This document shows, one piece after another, positions 43,396 to 54,200 of a stretch of 64,000 nt of DNA (positions are counted from its first letter, which is position 1; each line of letters begins with the position of its first letter). Below the pieces are notes generated by a model. That model was not told the DNA's origin. It made no database searches and saw nothing but the letters and a program-made list of their open reading frames with translations. The position numbers and the translations under genes were made by a program. Source of the DNA: Candidatus Collierbacteria bacterium GW2011_GWA2_42_17 (GTDB lineage Bacteria > Patescibacteriota > Microgenomatia > UBA1400 > MFAQ01); NCBI GenBank assembly GCA_000998275.1, contig LCDA01000003.1:1596-65595 (forward strand), read 5' to 3'.

Positions 43396-43983
43396 GTGAG
43401 GAAAACAGCTTTATGGGGAACGTTTTTTGTAGTTCTATTTTTATTGGTAGTTGGAGGGGTTTTGATTTTAAATTTGGGATGGATAAAATGTAGCAGTTTT
43501 ATAATGAAGGATACCGGGGAGAAAGCCAGTTGCGGTGTGTGGAGATTTGATGCTACCGGGCTAGATTCAAATAATGGGGAAAAGTATGTAGGGTACGGAA
43601 GAGTGGTGGGCATACAGTCCGTCGGCCAGAATGTAATACTTAGGGCCAGAATCGGCTTGGGGGGTAGATTTTTCTATATTCAAAATTTTCGTCTGTCTCC
43701 GAGAGATGATGGGAAGTTTGAGATATCTGAGGAGAGAAGAAAGTGGATAGGGTATTTTGATAACAGCAGGATGATAAGATTTGGTATGGAAGAAGTGCCA
43801 ACAATGCAAAAAGAATTAAGGGGAAAAGAAGTAATGCTGACATATGTTTCCTCGGGTGATGATAAAGGTATTGCTTGGAAGAGGGCAGTGGAAATGGGGA
43901 GTAATGTTTGGGAAAAGATAATATTGATGTTTAAGGGATTATTAAATATAAATACTCTAGATGCGACTCAAGCTGGCTATTAG
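43396..43983 (+). CDS. Hypothetical membrane-anchored protein
   Basis: 195 aa with an N-terminal TM (ALWGTFFVVLFLLVVGGVLIL). No known motif. Confidence 0.45.
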   Translation: MRKTALWGTFFVVLFLLVVGGVLILNLGWIKCSSFIMKDTGEKASCGVWRFDATGLDSNNGEKYVGYGRVVGIQSVGQNVILRARIGLGGRFFYIQNFRLSPRDDGKFEISEERRKWIGYFDNSRMIRFGMEEVPTMQKELRGKEVMLTYVSSGDDKGIAWKRAVEMGSNVWEKIILMFKGLLNINTLDATQAGY

Positions 43984-46486
43984 TTCATCCTTGTTGTTTT
44001 TAGGATTTCTTTTTTTGGGGACGATTTCCCCGGCCAAGGCAGCCCTTGAGTGTCACGGAAGCGGGCCAGCATCGATTATCAGTAGCTCGTGTGACTATTT
44101 TTCTGGAACAGGTACCTATAGCTGTGGTACGTCAACATCCAATTACACCTCTACTTGTAGTTTTTCCGGAGGATGTAGGAGAATGGGATTGGGGAGTACA
44201 GATGATACTGGGTGTAGTATTAGTTTTGATGAAAAATCTTGTGATGTAAACCCTGGTGGTCTAGCCGTGTACACGACTAGTGGTTGTTGGACGTGTGATA
44301 ACGCTGTGTGGAGTGCTTGCTCTGCTTCTTGTGATGGTGGTACTCAAACAAATCAGTGTGGTGGCACTCAATCGTGTAATACACAACCGTGTTGTTCTTC
44401 AAGTGGTCCGGATACACCAACCTTGTCCAGCCCGGCTAATGGGGCGAGTCTCAAGGGAACTGCAGTTACTTTGATCTGGAACGGTATAAGTAACTGGGGT
44501 ACGGAGTGTAGCAGTTCGGTTCCTAGAGACTATCAAATCTGTGCCGGTACAAACGCCGGCGACCCTTGTAGTGGTGGTTCTAGTTTTACTGTGGGTAGCG
44601 GAACTACCTCCCAAGTGTATACACTTCCCGATTCATTCCCCAGAACATACTACTGGAAAGTGAAGGCAGACAATACGAATCCTTCGGCTTCCGGTTGGTC
44701 GACGATTTGGAGCTTTAATGTGACTAATAACGCTCCTACGATTGTTTCGACATCTCCGGCAACAATTCCATCTAGTGGTAATGCAAGCTTAACGATAGTG
44801 ACAAGTGATGCCGATGGGGCGACCGACTTGCGAAGAGTCTTTTTCGCGTTTAATAACTGTAGTGTTGATCCGGGTGATGCAAACTGGAGTAATTTTGAGC
44901 ATAATAATGCCAATTATTTCGGGGCATTTACGTATGGTGGGGCAAATATCAATGTAGCAAATAACAATACTAGTGCGGCTTGTACAGGAGTATCGGCCAG
45001 TCCACCCACTCCGTGGGGTACAGTAGCGCCGTTTACGAACGCTTTGGGAACATTGAGGATTAACAGTGTCACTGATACTCGGGCGGGGAATAACTGGACT
45101 TCGGCATTTAACGTAACGACGACCAATTTTCCCGGGGGAACCTACAACTATTACGCAATGGTACAGGATAATGAGCTACTATGGCACACGGGAGGACCGA
45201 GTTGGAAGAAAATGGGAACAGTGTGTGTGGAAAGTGGAGCAGTCCTTGGAGCATGGGCGTCTTGTGATGGCAACCATAAACGAACTCGAACATGTACGGA
45301 AAGTTGTGGAACAGATGACTGTACGGCAGCCGGAGCCGTGGCCGGAGTAATTACCGAAGATTGTATCGGCACGATTCAAGGAACCTTGTTTGATGCTTCA
45401 GATCTTTCTTCTTGCCCGGCAAATATAGGGACGGATGCGGGGTATGCTTCTTTGAGACTAGGAAGTGCGGCCTTTGGTATTCTTGGTATGTGGCCAGCGA
45501 TTACAGCACCGGTTAGTACCGATGCCAACGGAAACTACTCAGAGCAGGTTTATGCCTCGACGACAAACGGAACGTACTCTTTTGATTATGCCGATCTGAT
45601 CTCCTCTGGAAGAGCGTCCGGAGTCAAGCTTCAGTGCCAGGGGGCTTCGGCTTCGGTAACGACCCAAGGGCAGGTGGTGACAAAAGATACCGGTTTTTGG
45701 AGAGTGTATAGCGGATGGTGGCAAGGGGTTGGCGGAAGTGTCTATGCAAGAAGCGGAGTCAGAAGCTATATACCGGCGAGTGTGGTTCCGGCAACCAATC
45801 AGAAATTGATTTTGGCAAACGCAGGCGGAAGAGTGGGAGTGCTGAGCCATGGATTTGTCTGGCAAGGGACGGAGCTGGGAACAAATCCCAACGCAGGAGT
45901 AAGTAGTTCTTTGTGGAGGATCCAGAGTCTTTATGAAGGACTGCGCTATGACTTTGATTTTTACAAGACGAGAATGGATGTGTTTCCTTTTACGGCGTGG
46001 GATGGGGGGGCTATCAACTACGATGATGGGGGAAGAGGATACCAGATATTCAAACACACGGGAGATGTGACTTTAAATTACAGCGGACCAACAGGAACAC
46101 AGAAGGCTATTTTGTTAGTAGATGGAAACGTAACGGTGAGTAACAACGTCGTTGTCCCAAGCGGGGCGTTCTTGGGAGTGATTGCCAAGGGTAATATTAT
46201 CTTTAATGCAAATTTGACCACGGCACAGGGTTGGTTTGTAGCGGAGAATCTTAGTGTTCCTTGTGTTGACACGGTGGCTCCCTTGGGTACTTGTGACAAG
46301 ACAGACGTCCAGTTTGATGGCCAGGGGTCGTTTGTGGGATGGACAGGGATAGCCTTGGCTAGAGATATGGGGGCGGGAAATAACACGACTCCGTCTGAGA
46401 AATTTACGTACAGGGTAGATATGGCGCTAAATGCACCAACACCAATAAAAGTATTCGCGAAAAAGTTTTCCCCCTTTATTCCTTAG
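43961..46486 (+). CDS. Large secreted Cys-rich protein with thrombospondin-type-1-like modules
   Basis: Signal peptide (SSLLFLGFLFLGTISPAKA). WSACSASCDGGTQTNQCGGTQSCNTQPC and WASCDGNHKRTRTCTESCGTDDC resemble TSP1 repeats. Many further Cys pairs. 841 aa. Confidence 0.65.
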   Translation: MRLKLAISSSLLFLGFLFLGTISPAKAALECHGSGPASIISSSCDYFSGTGTYSCGTSTSNYTSTCSFSGGCRRMGLGSTDDTGCSISFDEKSCDVNPGGLAVYTTSGCWTCDNAVWSACSASCDGGTQTNQCGGTQSCNTQPCCSSSGPDTPTLSSPANGASLKGTAVTLIWNGISNWGTECSSSVPRDYQICAGTNAGDPCSGGSSFTVGSGTTSQVYTLPDSFPRTYYWKVKADNTNPSASGWSTIWSFNVTNNAPTIVSTSPATIPSSGNASLTIVTSDADGATDLRRVFFAFNNCSVDPGDANWSNFEHNNANYFGAFTYGGANINVANNNTSAACTGVSASPPTPWGTVAPFTNALGTLRINSVTDTRAGNNWTSAFNVTTTNFPGGTYNYYAMVQDNELLWHTGGPSWKKMGTVCVESGAVLGAWASCDGNHKRTRTCTESCGTDDCTAAGAVAGVITEDCIGTIQGTLFDASDLSSCPANIGTDAGYASLRLGSAAFGILGMWPAITAPVSTDANGNYSEQVYASTTNGTYSFDYADLISSGRASGVKLQCQGASASVTTQGQVVTKDTGFWRVYSGWWQGVGGSVYARSGVRSYIPASVVPATNQKLILANAGGRVGVLSHGFVWQGTELGTNPNAGVSSSLWRIQSLYEGLRYDFDFYKTRMDVFPFTAWDGGAINYDDGGRGYQIFKHTGDVTLNYSGPTGTQKAILLVDGNVTVSNNVVVPSGAFLGVIAKGNIIFNANLTTAQGWFVAENLSVPCVDTVAPLGTCDKTDVQFDGQGSFVGWTGIALARDMGAGNNTTPSEKFTYRVDMALNAPTPIKVFAKKFSPFIP

Positions 46487-49153: not shown

Positions 49154-49645
49154 CTATTTGAGAAATTCGGCCGGAGGCGGAACAACCAGTTGGTTGTAGG
49201 TTTTGCCCTCATGCTGGGGCTTGGCTCCGTAGTTGCCTACGTGCAAATCCCAGGCACAGTCCAGCCCTGCTTGATTGGGGAGGGTCCACCAATGGCCTTT
49301 GACGCCATGAATGGTGATTTTTTCCCCAACATCAACACGTTGGACACCCTCGTTTGAGCCACCTGTCCACCATTCGTAAATGGCGGGACCTTCAATAGTG
49401 GTGACAACATAGGGGTCGAGCTCGCCCATATCATTGAATGGAACAGAGCTCGGGTCGCAAACGGCGACCGGGGCCACGGGTACGGGAACGGGGTCGCAGG
49501 TTTGCACGGCGACCGGGATTGGGGCAGAGTTTAATAACAGCTGCTGGTATATACCAAACAGCGCCTTGCCCACAAAGATACTGGCAATACAAAACAAAAT
49601 CAATGCAAGTATTGCAATTACAATCCACAAACCTCTTTTAGTCAT
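49154..49645 (-). CDS. Hypothetical N-terminally anchored secreted protein
   Basis: 163 aa. Signal/TM LWIVIAILALILFCIASIFVG. Pro/Val-rich linker (PVPVPVAPVAV). W-rich globular part. Confidence 0.45.
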   Translation of the reverse strand: MTKRGLWIVIAILALILFCIASIFVGKALFGIYQQLLLNSAPIPVAVQTCDPVPVPVAPVAVCDPSSVPFNDMGELDPYVVTTIEGPAIYEWWTGGSNEGVQRVDVGEKITIHGVKGHWWTLPNQAGLDCAWDLHVGNYGAKPQHEGKTYNQLVVPPPAEFLK

Positions 49646-49783: not shown

Positions 49784-50236
49784 TTAGTGTTTTAAAGTCT
49801 TGGCTTTGACGAAGGAGAGAAGGCCGCCAAGGTAAGCAATGCCGGCAAAGTTGAAGAAGGCAGCACTATCGGCACCAGTATCAACGGTAACGTGCTCGGT
49901 GCAGGTGTCGGCTGAGCCGTAGACCGGAGTACAAATAGTAGTTTTGGTGACGATGGTTGAAGCGGCAACTGACTGTCCGCCTTTGGTGGTTACTTTGTCG
50001 GTAACTTTAGGCATAGCGGTAGGGGTAACCGAGGGGATAGGAGTAATTATTACCGTAGGACTGGGTGTAGGAGTTAGGGTGCTATCGTTTTCGATCTCGT
50101 TGGCCGGAACGCCGATACTATCGACTGGTTTTTGAGGGGTAATTCTTTTGGCCAGAGAATAGGTGACCGCGCCGGTGAGGACGAGAATGACGAAGATAAT
50201 AGGCAAAATTGATTTCATATGGGCGAATGATAACAT
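49784..50236 (-). CDS. Secreted protein with C-terminal sorting-signal-like tail (candidate sortase substrate)
   Basis: N-terminal signal. T/P-rich linker. The C-terminus VDTGADSAAFFNFAGIAYLGGLLSFVKAKTLKH is a hydrophobic helix with a basic tail. Lies immediately downstream of the sortase gene. Confidence 0.45.
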   Translation of the reverse strand: MLSFAHMKSILPIIFVILVLTGAVTYSLAKRITPQKPVDSIGVPANEIENDSTLTPTPSPTVIITPIPSVTPTAMPKVTDKVTTKGGQSVAASTIVTKTTICTPVYGSADTCTEHVTVDTGADSAAFFNFAGIAYLGGLLSFVKAKTLKH

Positions 50237-50283: not shown

Positions 50284-50976
50284 TTATATCCTGTTGGCGT
50301 AGACAAAGAACCTCACAGGACTGTTCCATAACTGACACGTGTAGAGAATTAGGTCCGTGCTGTAATCGGTTATTTTCGTGCCTGAAGATACAGAGTAAAT
50401 TTTATATTCATATTGACGCTGATTCCAGATTATTTTGATAGTATCACCGGCCACCAGGTCCGGAAGACTGTAAAAGGAGTTGAGTTTTCGGAAAGCGGCG
50501 GACCAGTTGAGATAGCCCCAACGATGGGCGGCGAGAATAACGGGGCGAGAGTTGTCTTCCGGGGTACCAAAGTCGGGAACCCTCCAGACACCTTGTTTGA
50601 GGATTTCTTCCCAGTCGGAGCCTTCGTGTATTTCTCCTTTAACCCCAATTTTGTCGATGAGGAGACCATTTTCTTTGGGGAGTGAGGGGTCAATGTCTGG
50701 GAGGGGAGGGATGACGGCCGGGGTGGGGGTTGGTGATGGTAAAGATGTAGGAGTTGCGTCGACAGAGACGGTTGAGGCGATTGTGGAGGCAAGTATGCCT
50801 GAAGTCTGCGGGAAAAGACGGTAGTAGAGGTGGGGCCAGGAAGGAAGCAAGGCTAAAATGGTGGCGGAAAGCCAAAAAGTAACTCCGATGGTGACAAAGG
50901 ATCTTTTGGTAAATCGCATATACTTAAGTTTAGCAGTAGTTTGGAGCAAACTACTCTTGCATGTAATCAGTAACAA
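50284..50976 (-). CDS. Sortase family transpeptidase
   Basis: PVILAAHR (active-site His), LILYTC (TLxTC Cys), downstream conserved Arg (SPVRFF), N-terminal TM anchor. The start may be the internal MRF at 50917. Confidence 0.75.
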   Translation of the reverse strand: MLLITCKSSLLQTTAKLKYMRFTKRSFVTIGVTFWLSATILALLPSWPHLYYRLFPQTSGILASTIASTVSVDATPTSLPSPTPTPAVIPPLPDIDPSLPKENGLLIDKIGVKGEIHEGSDWEEILKQGVWRVPDFGTPEDNSRPVILAAHRWGYLNWSAAFRKLNSFYSLPDLVAGDTIKIIWNQRQYEYKIYSVSSGTKITDYSTDLILYTCQLWNSPVRFFVYANRI

Positions 50977-51235
50977 TACTGATTATTTTTCTAATCTTTT
51001 CATTACAGTCTTTAAAAGAAATTCTATCTAATATGGAGTTTCCGTATTTTCTAAACAGATCACTTATGAGTGCGTGTATGAATGATTGAGTTGCTGCCTC
51101 AACCCCTTTAAAATTCAAGATAATATCTTCACCATTTTCTAACATGGGAATTAACTCGTTTAATCTGATGTTTCGTGCGATATCTTTGTTTTCAGCAAAA
51201 TTTCCTGTTTTTGGTAATAAGATTATTTCTGTCAT
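50951..51235 (-). CDS. STAS-like small protein (DUF4325/SiaC-like), partner of the adjacent GHKL ATPase
   Basis: 94 aa. The alpha/beta pattern (DIILNFKGVEAATQSFIHALISDLF) is reminiscent of anti-sigma-antagonist-like STAS folds. ATGA overlap with the ATPase gene. Confidence 0.45.
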   Translation of the reverse strand: MTEIILLPKTGNFAENKDIARNIRLNELIPMLENGEDIILNFKGVEAATQSFIHALISDLFRKYGNSILDRISFKDCNEKIRKIISIVTDYMQE

Positions 51236-52194
51236 ATGAATTTTGCTTCTTTATGCCTAATTCTTTTTCTTTCCGTGAGACCTTCTGAATAGGCTTTTCT
51301 GATAAGGTCGAGTAGTTTCGTGAAGTCGTTGTTTTGATTGAGCGTGATATCAATACCAACAACCGTTCCTTGCCAGCTAGGTAAATCTGTATTTTCTGAG
51401 TGGCCGTCTTTATTTGGGTCAGCGAACAAACGGACGTTTTTGTTAACAGGTGTTCTTAGTAGTTTAAATAATGAGTGGCCGCTATAAATCATAAAAAAGT
51501 CTCTACTGACTTTGGCGATTGACTTGATAAAAAACAATCCTGCCCCCGCATTTGTTTCCGTTCCGCCAATTTTGGTTGTTGTTCCGGTAATTCCCGGAAC
51601 AAGTGCGAGCTTGATCGCGGTCATGTCGTCTTCGACACTATATGACTGTCTCATTGAGTTTTTTATGCCGATACCGGTATCGGCGATTCCTATTCGAATT
51701 CTGTTTACATCTGGGTAGTACTGAGCACACAAAATGGCTCCGTATGGTGATTCGGAGTGTTCAAAAACATTTCTAGCTAGTTCCGAGATGACATATTTAA
51801 TGGGTTCAGCCTGAACTGGATCCAGGTGGAGAAGGGGAATGACTTCGGTAATAAAATAGGTTAGTTCATCCGAGTTTCTAATTATTGTTAAGGGGATAAA
51901 ACGCCCAGCGGCTTCATGTTCATGTATTTTTATACCAGAGTCAATGCCAAGTATTTTGAACATACCCATTCTCTCAAAATAATTTTTTGATTTTGCTTCA
52001 AATGGTTCGCAGTAAATGTTGTCTTTGCCGATTGTAAGACCCAAAGAAGCAACCATTGAAAGAACAACGGGGTGTACTGAAATCCAGTTTTTATTTGCGG
52101 TGATTTCTAGTCTTGACCTGTCGGAAAAATCGATAGAACGTAGAAAAGAGTCGATGTTTCCAATAAAAGCACTGTTTGGTAAGTGAATCTTCAT
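51232..52194 (-). CDS. GHKL/HATPase_c-type ATP-binding protein with a 120-aa N-terminal domain of unknown function
   Basis: N-box ISELARNVFEHS, G1 IGIADTGIGI, G2 NAGAGLFFIKSIA (Bergerat fold). No HisKA/DHp domain recognisable. Confidence 0.65.
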   Translation of the reverse strand: MKIHLPNSAFIGNIDSFLRSIDFSDRSRLEITANKNWISVHPVVLSMVASLGLTIGKDNIYCEPFEAKSKNYFERMGMFKILGIDSGIKIHEHEAAGRFIPLTIIRNSDELTYFITEVIPLLHLDPVQAEPIKYVISELARNVFEHSESPYGAILCAQYYPDVNRIRIGIADTGIGIKNSMRQSYSVEDDMTAIKLALVPGITGTTTKIGGTETNAGAGLFFIKSIAKVSRDFFMIYSGHSLFKLLRTPVNKNVRLFADPNKDGHSENTDLPSWQGTVVGIDITLNQNNDFTKLLDLIRKAYSEGLTERKRIRHKEAKFI

Positions 52195-52204
52195 AGACGT
52201 ATTT

Positions 52205-52276
52205 TACCGGGATTCCCGGTATTTGTCAAGATTACCGGGATTCCCGGCATTTTATGGATTATTCAGGATTCCTGGA
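52205..52276. repeat. Three copies of a quasi-palindromic motif (ACCGGGATTCCCGG x2, TCAGGATTCCTGGA) in the divergent region upstream of the ATPase operon and rho
   Basis: Read directly at 52205-52219, 52232-52246 and 52263-52276, 28-31 bp apart. Confidence 0.4.
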
Positions 52277-52381
52277 ACATTTTGCCGATTAAAGCGAGAT
52301 CCATCGCTGAAAAAGGCAGGAGAGAATGGTGATGCTGTAATTGATAGATTGATATACTTGAGTAGACCTATATAACACGGG

Positions 52382-52410
52382 TTGACAAAGTTAGGTTCAG
52401 ATGATATACT
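52382..52410 (+). promoter_or_regulatory. Sigma-70-type promoter for rho with a leader of about 370 nt
   Basis: TTGACA, a 17-nt spacer, then TATACT. The rho ATG is at 52797. Confidence 0.5.
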
Positions 52411-52796
52411 GCCTCTTAGTTTGACATACTTTTGATTCGATTGAAGGTGAAATGGGTTTGGTTCGCAGTACCAACCTTAAAACCTGGCGCTGCAGCTAAG
52501 GCCTTACGCGTTTCACCCTTAATCGACTTAATTGATTTCGAACTAACCTCCCTTCCGTTGATTCTAAAAATATCCTCGAAATGTCGAGGATGATACATGT
52601 TTGTATTTATCCAGAGTGGGGTTTTGACTACGAGCTCCGCCTCATGGTGGTGAGTTGTAGTCACATTTAGCTTACCGGACTTGACAGCGAGTCTATCCGT
52701 TGTAGAATTGAGATGTTCCTATCTAATTTCCCTCCAATCGCAGATGATTTTTTCTAGTTTCCAAAATTTTACTAATAAAACCTAATTTCCTATCTT

Positions 52797-54200
52797 ATGG
52801 CAGAAAAAGCCAAGACCCGTGTTAAAAAAACTGTTGCCGTTGCAGAGTCTCCGGTAACTCCTATTGCTGAACCTGTAGCTTTGTCGACCGCTCCCTCAAA
52901 AGAGGAAACTCCTGTAGCTACTCCCGTGGCTCCCGTATCCCGACCTGTCGTTCCCGGCAACCAACTACCGCCGCAGTATCAAGGCAGACCTTACGTGAGG
53001 CCACAGTATCAGCAACGTCCGATGATGCGACCTTCATTTGTACGCGCACCACAAGAACCGGTAATTACCGAAGAGGTAACCGGCATTGTGGATGTTTTTG
53101 GATCCGATGGCCGAGCAATGGCTCGTGCCGAGTACCGACCAGGAGAGAATGACGTATTTATTACCTCACAGATGGTGAGAGCCTCCAAACTTCGTCCCGG
53201 GGATGTGGTAGTTGGCCTTGCCAGACGTCCTAAAGAGAACGAGCCTTACTGGAATATGGTACAGATCACCAAGATTAACGGAGTGGATGCAACCACGGTT
53301 ACCGAAAGGCTGCGATTTGAAAAAGGTGTCCCAATTTACCCTTACGAGAAGCTAAAACTGGAAACGGGCAAAGAAATATTGTCGACCCGTTTGATTGATC
53401 TTTGTGCTCCGATTGGCCGAGGACAGAGAGGTATTATTGTGTCTCCTCCTAAAGCCGGTAAAACAACCATCATTAAAGAAATTGCGTCTGGAATTGCGGC
53501 CAACTATCCCGAGATTCACATCATTGCCGTTCTTGTGGGTGAGCGCCCCGAAGAAGTGACCGATATTTCTCGACATATTAAAGCCATTACCAAAGACTCG
53601 GACATGTTGGGTGAGACAGCTGCCAGCAACTTTGACGAAAAAGCCGAGGAACAAACCAAAGTAGCAGAGATCGCTCTGGAACGGGCGAAGCGCTTAGTGG
53701 AGCAGGGAAAAGACGTAGTGATACTTTTGGACTCCGTTACTCGTCTTGCCCGTGCCTACAACTTGGCTATTCCAACATCCGGTCGTACGTTGTCCGGTGG
53801 ATTTGATCCGGCAGCTTTGTATCCTCCTAAGAAATTCTTTGGTGCGGCACGTAAAATCGAGGGTGGCGGAAGTTTGACCATTATTGGTACCGCACTAATC
53901 GATACCGGCTCACGTATGGATGATCTCGTTTACGAAGAGTTTAAGGGTACCGGCAACATGGAGCTTCACTTGGATCGCCATTTGGCAGAGAGACGCATCT
54001 ACCCATCTATTGACGTGATGAGAAGTGGTACTCGTCGCGACGACTTGCTTTTTGACAACGTGGAGTACCAGAGCATCATCCTGATGCGTAGAATGCTGGA
54101 CATGTTGGGTGACAATGAGAGAACGGAAGTACTCTTGTCCCGTTTGCAAAAGACAAAATCAAATAAGGAGTTCTTGGCCTCACTGAAAGACGGCGGGTAA
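52797..54200 (+). CDS. rho: Transcription termination factor Rho (with low-complexity N-terminal insertion)
   Basis: P-loop GQRGIIVSPPKAGKTT, Q/R loops, CSD-like RNA-binding region, N-terminal P/Q/R-rich extension. Confidence 0.95.
   Translation: MAEKAKTRVKKTVAVAESPVTPIAEPVALSTAPSKEETPVATPVAPVSRPVVPGNQLPPQYQGRPYVRPQYQQRPMMRPSFVRAPQEPVITEEVTGIVDVFGSDGRAMARAEYRPGENDVFITSQMVRASKLRPGDVVVGLARRPKENEPYWNMVQITKINGVDATTVTERLRFEKGVPIYPYEKLKLETGKEILSTRLIDLCAPIGRGQRGIIVSPPKAGKTTIIKEIASGIAANYPEIHIIAVLVGERPEEVTDISRHIKAITKDSDMLGETAASNFDEKAEEQTKVAEIALERAKRLVEQGKDVVILLDSVTRLARAYNLAIPTSGRTLSGGFDPAALYPPKKFFGAARKIEGGGSLTIIGTALIDTGSRMDDLVYEEFKGTGNMELHLDRHLAERRIYPSIDVMRSGTRRDDLLFDNVEYQSIILMRRMLDMLGDNERTEVLLSRLQKTKSNKEFLASLKDGG

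Follow-up and report, generated by a model that had tools for sequence, protein, structure and literature searches.

A two-gene cassette of a putative kinase and a STAS-like protein with a conserved palindromic operator in a Candidatus Collierbacteria genome, and its relatives in bacteria, archaea and phages

The gene pair and its promoter region

Two overlapping genes, here called K and S, lie on the minus strand of a 64,000-nt stretch of DNA from Candidatus Collierbacteria bacterium GW2011_GWA2_42_17 (contig LCDA01000003.1, positions 1,596 to 65,595; hereafter the window). Together with the operator-bearing promoter in front of K they form a compact cassette, whose features are listed in Table 1. 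A first-pass annotation had described the pair as a GHKL ATPase with a novel N-terminal domain, translationally coupled to a small STAS-like protein, and had offered two roles for it: control of surface display through the neighbouring sortase genes, or a stand-alone conflict module. The present analysis identifies the cassette as the CapKS/VapKSC switch in a minimal form that lacks an effector, crosses between domains, and has a conserved operator. No description of this minimal cassette was found in the literature searched. In VapKSC, the STAS-GHKL protein VapK is combined with a STAS antitoxin, VapS, and a PIN toxin, VapC (Chambers et al., EMBO J 2026, PMC13373217). CapK is a kinase with helix-turn-helix (HTH), STAS, and GHKL parts, whose activator is single-stranded DNA (ssDNA) and which phosphorylates a conserved serine of CapS, a repressor composed of a STAS domain and a winged HTH (wHTH); CapK/CapS is placed upstream of immune operons (PMC13373217).

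Both open reading frames (ORFs) and their overlap were confirmed by reading the sequence. The start codon of S (ATG, 51235..51233) and the stop codon of K (TGA, 51234..51232) have the four bases ATGA in common. A one-genome-per-species scan yielded 54 full loci, with DNA available for 53 of them (the genome loci below), and the same ATGA geometry was found in most of these 53 as well as in 25 of 35 metagenome loci. The pair is far beyond chance ORFs: the database holds 2921 homologues of K, nearly all with a length of about 320 aa and an identity of 60-70%, and the best 120 of the 2921 are 62-100% identical. S follows directly after K in 53/53 genome loci and in 35/37 metagenome loci, the other two ending at a contig edge, so the co-occurrence of the two genes, proposed earlier as a check, is borne out. 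Even behind the gene of a K homologue with 28% identity comes a DUF4325 gene, and fused K-S proteins of 400-450 aa occur among the relatives.

Table 1. Features of the K-S cassette in the window (positions are those of the window)
Feature	Coordinates	Strand	Description	Basis
K gene	51232..52194	minus	320 aa; STAS-like + GHKL (SpoIIAB/VapK-type) putative Ser/Thr kinase with basic C-terminal tail	ORF
K residues 1-122	51829..52194	minus	Degenerate STAS-like N-terminal domain (predicted); His41-Pro42 at the SpoIIAA phospho-serine position, conserved Trp37	
K residues 123-288	51331..51828	minus	GHKL/Bergerat ATP-binding domain; E138, N142, D172xGxG, TGTTxK, NAGAGLFF	
K residues 289-320	51235..51330	minus	Long C-terminal helix and basic tail (consensus ..ERKKxKYRRPRFI); candidate DNA-binding or dimerisation element	
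S gene	50951..51235	minus	94 aa, single-domain STAS-like protein (DUF4325); putative substrate/antagonist of K	Pfam, AlphaFold2
S codons Thr49-Gln50-Ser51	51083..51091	minus	Conserved [ST]-[QE]-[ST]-F motif at the alpha2 N-terminus; candidate site for phosphate acceptance	
ATGA overlap	51232..51235	minus	K stop/S start; translational coupling	Read from sequence
Predicted sigma-70-type promoter	52201..52229	minus	-35 TTGACA (52229..52224), 17-nt spacer, -10 TAAAAT (52206..52201)	Promoter scan, 11/12 match
Operator O1	52205..52221		Perfect 17-bp palindrome TACCGGGATTCCCGGTA; fills the promoter spacer, 2-nt overlap with the -10	
Operator O2	52233..52249		Second copy TACCGGGATTCCCGGCA; just upstream of the -35, 28 bp from O1	
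Third operator copy	52261..52277		Degenerate, core CAGGATTCCTG; 28 bp further upstream	Direct-repeat family D1, 28-bp spacing

The cassette promoter is overlapped by a 17-bp palindrome, TACCGGGAWTCCCGGTA, which has a 1-bp centre and is accompanied at the promoter by more distant half-sites. Its core, CCGGGAWTCCCGG, lies no more than 120 nt upstream of K in 44 of the 53 loci and was found at 3 other sites in 524 kb of locus DNA. In the window, operator copies were detected neither downstream of S nor anywhere else in the 64 kb. The ATG of K begins 6 nt past the -10 element; the cassette mRNA is therefore probably leaderless, and this probably holds in both domains of life.

The core promoter in front of K is of two types. 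Bacterial-type loci contain TTGAC in 22/25 cases and, equally in 22/25, a half-site running into the -10 (GGTAnAAT), whereas TTGAC is found in 0/28 archaeal-type loci, which have a TATA-like box at about -30 (26/28) and often an extra half-site close to the start codon. Across both domains the cassette keeps this operator, while the core promoter switches between -35/-10 elements and a TATA box. The layout extends to distant relatives. Cassettes on phage contigs with 45% identity carry ATACCCGTAGATCGTAT on one side of the -35 and an inverted copy running into TATAAT, and a cassette with 28% identity retains the operator layout with the half-sites TACCAGT and ACTGGTA.

A metagenome scan for the exact 17-mer returned at least 126 sites, at least 64 of which adjoin the start of K among the matches listed. 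The sites apart from K were mostly located inside coding sequence (e.g., in AAA+ P-loops) or were solitary, and no second gene family recurred beside the operator among the metagenome matches listed.

Two sites were read as cassette remnants. At locus L018 (6947-6965), a solitary perfect operator is followed by TTGACT without a K gene, 1.4 kb from an intact cassette. At locus L055 (6001-6165), the operator is followed by only the first 55 codons of K.

Domain architecture and conserved residues of K and S

Conservation in K was judged on 47 diverse homologues with identities down to 27%. The GHKL motifs are invariant or nearly so, namely E138, N142, E145, and H146 of the N-box, D172-x-G174-x-G176 of the G1 box, and G217-x-G219-L220 of the G2 box, in line with the intact ATP-binding boxes of the first-pass annotation. 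The motifs of the kinase type (the E138...N142 spacing and TGTTxK...NAGAGLF) are kept. K of the window matches HATPase_c (E = 9e-4) and HATPase_c_2 (E = 4e-3) in Pfam, both under the gathering score, and HATPase_c_2 (PF13581) is matched by 43/47 family members (best E = 1.8e-8). No HisKA/DHp region was found in K, in agreement with the earlier view that histidine-kinase parts are missing; the protein belongs with GHKL proteins of the SpoIIAB/RsbW kind.

The AlphaFold2 model of K (predicted local distance difference test, pLDDT, 91.5; predicted template modelling score, pTM, 0.90) consists of an alternating beta/alpha domain (1-122), a GHKL domain (126-284), and a long C-terminal helix (291-314), and the order of its secondary-structure elements matches a STAS-like-then-GHKL layout. 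When the GHKL part was searched with Foldseek, Topo VI-B was nearest by E-value (2e-5) and SpoIIAB was nearest by template modelling (TM) score (target TM 0.65-0.70).

For comparison with the known switch, the sequences of VapK and VapS were taken from the AlphaFold 3 file of PMC13373217. With hhalign, the K profile aligned to VapK over both domains (98.4%, E = 6e-15, 242 columns, K 22-287). The GHKL half of K aligned to the C-terminal half of VapK with E = 3e-14, and the N-terminal domain alone to the VapK N-terminus with E = 2e-4. The statement that the first 120 aa of K have no known relatives is thus corrected: they are homologous to the N-terminus of VapK.

The N-terminal domain also aligned in register, though weakly (E = 0.01), with SpoIIAA, and this alignment is taken as a lead only. 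In it, His41-Pro42 of K fall on Asp57-Ser58, and YFERMGMFKIL of K falls on LFDMSGLFKII. P42 of K is invariant; Trp37 is conserved in the close subfamily and is aligned two residues off F54 of VapK. A Pfam scan of the 47 K homologues gave no STAS match, and one fused K-S relative gave a lone weak match to STAS_2 (E = 1.3e-3). Judged from these alignments, the N-terminal domain of K is a degenerate STAS-like domain that is predicted to be non-phosphorylatable. Profile comparison of this domain with S revealed no similarity, and the two STAS-like domains are therefore not recent duplicates.

The alignment with VapK ends at residue 287 of K, and the C-terminal helix and tail are absent from VapK. 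The net charge of the last 22 residues of K averages +7.3 over 53 homologues (range +4 to +10), and F319 is near-invariant. The isoelectric points of K and S are 9.3 and 6.0, respectively. Residues 289-320 are a candidate for a DNA-binding or dimerisation element.

S matched the STAS-like Pfam family DUF4325 (PF14213) with E = 2.6e-12, above the gathering score. Its profile matched VapS (PDB 9z7o) with E = 3.7e-5, and hhalign of S and VapS gave E = 6.7e-6. The AlphaFold2 model of S, made from database proteins, is a four-strand, three-helix alpha/beta domain (pLDDT 97.2). The profile comparisons, of the kind proposed earlier for both proteins, support the STAS-like domain that had been suspected in S. 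The 94 residues of S comprise this domain only, without a wHTH and without the C-terminal inhibitory helix of the VapS type.

Three neighbouring residues stand out in S. Among 54 S sequences, T49 is conserved in 53/54, Q50 in 54/54, and S51 in 54/54, and the motif [ST]-[QE]-[ST]-F is retained in S subfamilies at 28-45% identity. In the AlphaFold2 model, helix alpha2 starts at residue 50 and Thr49 forms its N-cap. In CapK/VapK-type modules, phosphate is accepted by an absolutely conserved Ser/Thr with which alpha2 of the STAS protein starts (PMC13373217).

In PADLOC, one and the same DrmA model (PDLC02567) matches both proteins, K with its profile positions 75-250 and S with positions 314-389. 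K-S as the DISARM protein DrmA was rejected: the large helicase core is absent, and these two segments are all that is matched of the 1750-position model. K and S match consecutive parts of one DrmA model, and the module therefore appears attachable to a helicase, which suggests that some DISARM-like/DrmA-like helicases carry an N-terminal fused kinase-STAS module.

Neighbouring genes, host range and mobility

All ORFs of at least 70 aa in the 6-kb flanks of the 53 loci were clustered. No conserved neighbour or third gene was found; the best neighbour family was present in 4/53 loci. In 25 loci the next gene downstream has the orientation of the cassette; in 24 it is on the opposite strand, in many cases convergent at a distance of 5-20 nt. 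Most of the hundred nearest neighbours have housekeeping roles (gyrase A, glutamine synthetase, ligase, enolase), and defence or mobility genes among the neighbours are few (AbiE proteins, one type I restriction enzyme, integrases, transposases). The cassette was shown to be independent of its neighbouring genes. No sigma factor or PP2C phosphatase gene was linked to the cassette in any of the 53 loci. An empty site, i.e., rho beside the sortase gene without the cassette, was sought via the identical Rho protein; the cassette was present in every contig.

Hosts of K relatives include bacteria of the candidate phyla radiation (CPR), Elusimicrobia, Omnitrophica, Nanoarchaeota, Woesearchaeota, and other groups. 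Archaeal-type and bacterial-type cassettes are interleaved in a neighbour-joining tree of K. Cassettes of CPR bacteria and DPANN archaea share about 63% identity. Mean identity of K amounts to 0.655 among archaea and 0.647 among bacteria, against 0.632 between the two, and for 7/53 sequences the nearest neighbour lies across the bacteria/archaea boundary.

A 45%-identical K-S pair with its own promoter was found on a contig of a tailed phage in IMG/VR (UViG_3300008278_000028; locus L063, 5938-7250; also L061 and L062). It is located between the portal and capsid-protease genes and the tape-measure gene, a typical moron site. More distant K-S pairs are carried on an Alicyclobacillus plasmid, beside insertion sequence (IS) elements. 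The cassette is mobile between bacteria, archaea, and phages.

At locus L060 (1053-5238), an operon of tightly overlapping genes opens with two for a 639-aa HATPase_c_3 (MORC-like) protein and a C5 DNA methylase and closes with two for a 33%-identical K and a DUF4325 protein. A tblastn search of plasmids with a VapS fragment, aimed at VapK, returned only a DUF4325 fragment from Leptotrichia. Furthermore, a 343-aa distant K-like protein with STAS-like and GHKL parts, without S, is encoded on the 6.8-kb Acinetobacter baumannii plasmid p2OC074 (locus L194, 3321-4352), where its gene adjoins a BrnT/BrnA toxin-antitoxin pair.

Comparison with known systems and possible function

The cassette and VapKSC have in common that the kinase gene comes first and the STAS gene directly after, that the homology of K and VapK takes in both the STAS-like and the GHKL domain, and that S is homologous to the STAS domain of VapS. 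Unlike VapKSC, the cassette has no vapC or any other third gene in the 53 loci, S has no equivalent of the C-terminal inhibitory region of VapS (VapS 94-116), and Ser48 of VapS aligns with Gln50. Further differences are the added basic C-terminal helix and tail of K, the conserved palindromic operator, and the spread over archaea and CPR bacteria. CapK/CapS, a kinase/STAS pair of the same kind, likewise has a palindromic operator with a 1-bp centre over its own promoter together with more distant half-sites. However, K has no N-terminal HTH, S has no wHTH, the half-site of the cassette is TACCGGGA instead of TTAA, and no co-directional immune operon follows, the downstream genes being oriented either way and mostly housekeeping. 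The output element of CapK/VapK-type modules, either a wHTH on the STAS protein or an inhibitory helix with a VapC gene, is absent.

The resemblance to a partner-switching kinase and antagonist, to which the first-pass annotation had pointed, proved to be well founded: the pair shares homology with VapK/VapS and, by way of these, with the CapK/CapS group (PMC13373217). With SpoIIAB/SpoIIAA and RsbW/RsbV it shares the fold and motifs of a GHKL serine kinase, a STAS antagonist, and adjacent genes, and the K family is of the HATPase_c_2 type with E138/N142, K of the window itself scoring below the cut-off. In contrast to these pairs, the cassette comes without a linked sigma factor or PP2C phosphatase and occurs in archaea as well, K has a degenerate STAS domain of its own, and S belongs to DUF4325 instead of the classical STAS family. 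Type II toxin-antitoxin operons, among them those with a kinase toxin such as HipBA, resemble the cassette in being small overlapping two-gene operons with a palindromic operator in their own promoter, in their mobile and patchy spread with insertion at unrelated sites and in phages and plasmids, and in autoregulation, as deduced here from the operator position. They differ in that the cassette has no canonical DNA-binding antitoxin and is unusually highly conserved. In a known system that pairs DUF4325 with an effector, the DUF4325 protein is likewise the effector's partner, but its PIN protein is absent from the cassette.

From these comparisons, we consider it rather probable that the cassette is a mobile kinase-STAS switch of minimal make-up that regulates itself and acts in the manner of a toxin-antitoxin or defence module; of the two roles offered earlier, the stand-alone conflict module fits the data best. 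By homology, K would bind S and phosphorylate it at Thr49 or Ser51, at the start of alpha2, and would be activated by a stress signal, perhaps ssDNA as for CapK. The position of the operator suggests that a cassette protein represses its own promoter through the palindrome. Our best guess for the palindrome binder is a dimer of K acting via its basic tail, alone or with S, and the anatomy of the cassette suggests that phosphorylation of S would change the repression state. The output would probably be K itself, because the cassette lacks a wHTH, a VapC, and a downstream operon under its control; speculatively, K may act on other cellular or viral targets. S might hold K in check, which would make a toxin-antitoxin-like or abortive-infection-like module. 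In its furthest form, this interpretation describes a new minimal conflict or addiction module of bacteria and archaea, in which K would be sensor, effector or toxin, and autorepressor binding DNA through its basic tail, the bare STAS protein would be a phospho-switchable antagonist, and the element would take its operator and leaderless design along when moving between domains, with the core promoter alone exchanged. We put this forward tentatively, as possible and not as the expected outcome.

Several results weigh against a phosphorylation-driven, autoregulated conflict module. The invariant Gln50 of S aligns with S48 of VapS and S58 of SpoIIAA, which are proven or proposed phospho-serines; because the canonical acceptor position is thus an invariant Gln, phosphorylation of S at T49 or S51 is only an assumption. 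A distant K (locus L057) lacks the equivalent of Glu138. Foldseek results for S were weak (E = 0.1-1), with STAS domains (SULTR4;1, RsbS, prestin, SpoIIAA) mixed with macrodomains. Neither K nor S has a recognisable DNA-binding domain, and a comparison of operator variants (loci L022, L044, L051, L012, and L032) gave no informative covarying residues in K or S. There was no evident enrichment of defence islands among the cassette neighbours, and the conservation of K and S (about 63% identity across domains) is atypical for toxin-antitoxin or defence genes.

Four other explanations were weighed. The pair might act like CapK/CapS, as a damage-responsive transcriptional controller of adjacent variable cargo or of distant operator-bearing genes. 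Its homology to the VapK/VapS branch of the CapK/CapS group, a narrow palindrome with distant half-sites that recalls the narrow and wide CapS sites, and the 33%-identical relative that ends the operon of HATPase_c_3 and C5 methylase genes speak for such a role; we nevertheless regard it as unlikely, as S lacks a wHTH, half of the loci have a convergent downstream gene, the window has no further operator copy downstream of S or elsewhere, only 3 extra sites occur in the 524 kb, and no other gene family recurs by the operator among the metagenome matches listed. That K is instead a DNA-directed GHKL ATPase of the MORC/Topo VI-B/MutL kind, acting at or beyond the palindrome with S as a never-phosphorylated allosteric regulator, seems quite unlikely. 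Topo VI-B gives the best E-values in Foldseek, K is a basic protein and its tail is highly so, the canonical acceptor position of S is Gln, and the operon with the MORC-like protein and the methylase is suggestive here too; yet the TM-scores to Topo VI-B are low (0.25), K has no transducer domain, TGTTxK, the E...N spacing, and homology over the full length speak for the kinase VapK, and the Thr and Ser flanking Gln50 in S are invariant.

A classical partner switch of the SpoIIAB/SpoIIAA type, in which K sequesters a host transcription factor and S releases it, would agree with the proximity of the GHKL domain to SpoIIAB in TM-score, the HATPase_c_2 matches, and the STAS-like nature of S. It is very unlikely in view of the missing sigma factor and phosphatase genes, of the same proteins being found behind archaeal promoters in archaea, which have no sigma factors, and of a rapid cross-domain spread that argues against a host-specific partner. 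The general target of the pair cannot be a sigma factor, since archaea have equally conserved copies behind archaeal promoters. Least probable of all, to the point of being hardly credible, is the regulation of the adjacent sortase and surface-protein genes of the Collierbacteria genome, the first of the roles offered earlier. A sortase gene (PF04203, E = 1.2e-9) does lie downstream of S on the minus strand and would begin about 30 nt past the S stop if its ATG is at 50919; no terminator is predicted between the two, so that read-through from the cassette promoter is plausible, and the arrangement is the same in all contigs with the identical Rho protein. However, the adjacency of S and sortase was seen in no other locus examined, sortase is not a conserved neighbour in the 53 loci (no family exceeds 4), and the cassette is equally conserved in archaea and present in phage. 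The link to the sortase looks coincidental, because there is no conserved neighbour and downstream orientation is random.

As an autonomous kinase-STAS switch, the cassette differs from what has been known since 2026, when such switches always came with an attached output, either a repressor domain or a nuclease toxin; here the switch stands alone, in thousands of copies, mainly in ultrasmall CPR bacteria, DPANN archaea, and phages. This compact two-gene system with a defined 17-bp operator raises the question of what the switch does by itself. The operator behind both bacterial and archaeal promoters offers a rare testable case of a regulatory cassette adapted to both transcription systems, and it is a marker of recent gene flow between bacteria and archaea.

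Some features around the cassette are recorded here in their own right. Possibly a long leader of the divergent rho gene, the 600-nt region between that gene and the cassette (52290-52796) contains an imperfect inverted repeat of 26 nt (52432-52457 / 52506-52531), and promoters on the plus strand are predicted in it at 52382 and 52681. No credible match was obtained from Rfam for 50800-52900. Downstream of the sortase gene, two small proteins encoded at 49784-50236 (-) and 49154-49645 (-) have N-terminal membrane segments and are possible sortase substrates. The C-terminus of the 150-aa one of the two consists of VDTGA, then a hydrophobic stretch, and then a basic tail, and it resembles a sorting signal. 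Farther away, at 43961-46486 (+), an 841-aa secreted Cys-rich protein is encoded; it had no Pfam match at E<0.001 and contains motifs similar to thrombospondin type-1 repeats (WSACSASCDGGTQT..CNTQPCC), which is unusual for a CPR bacterium.

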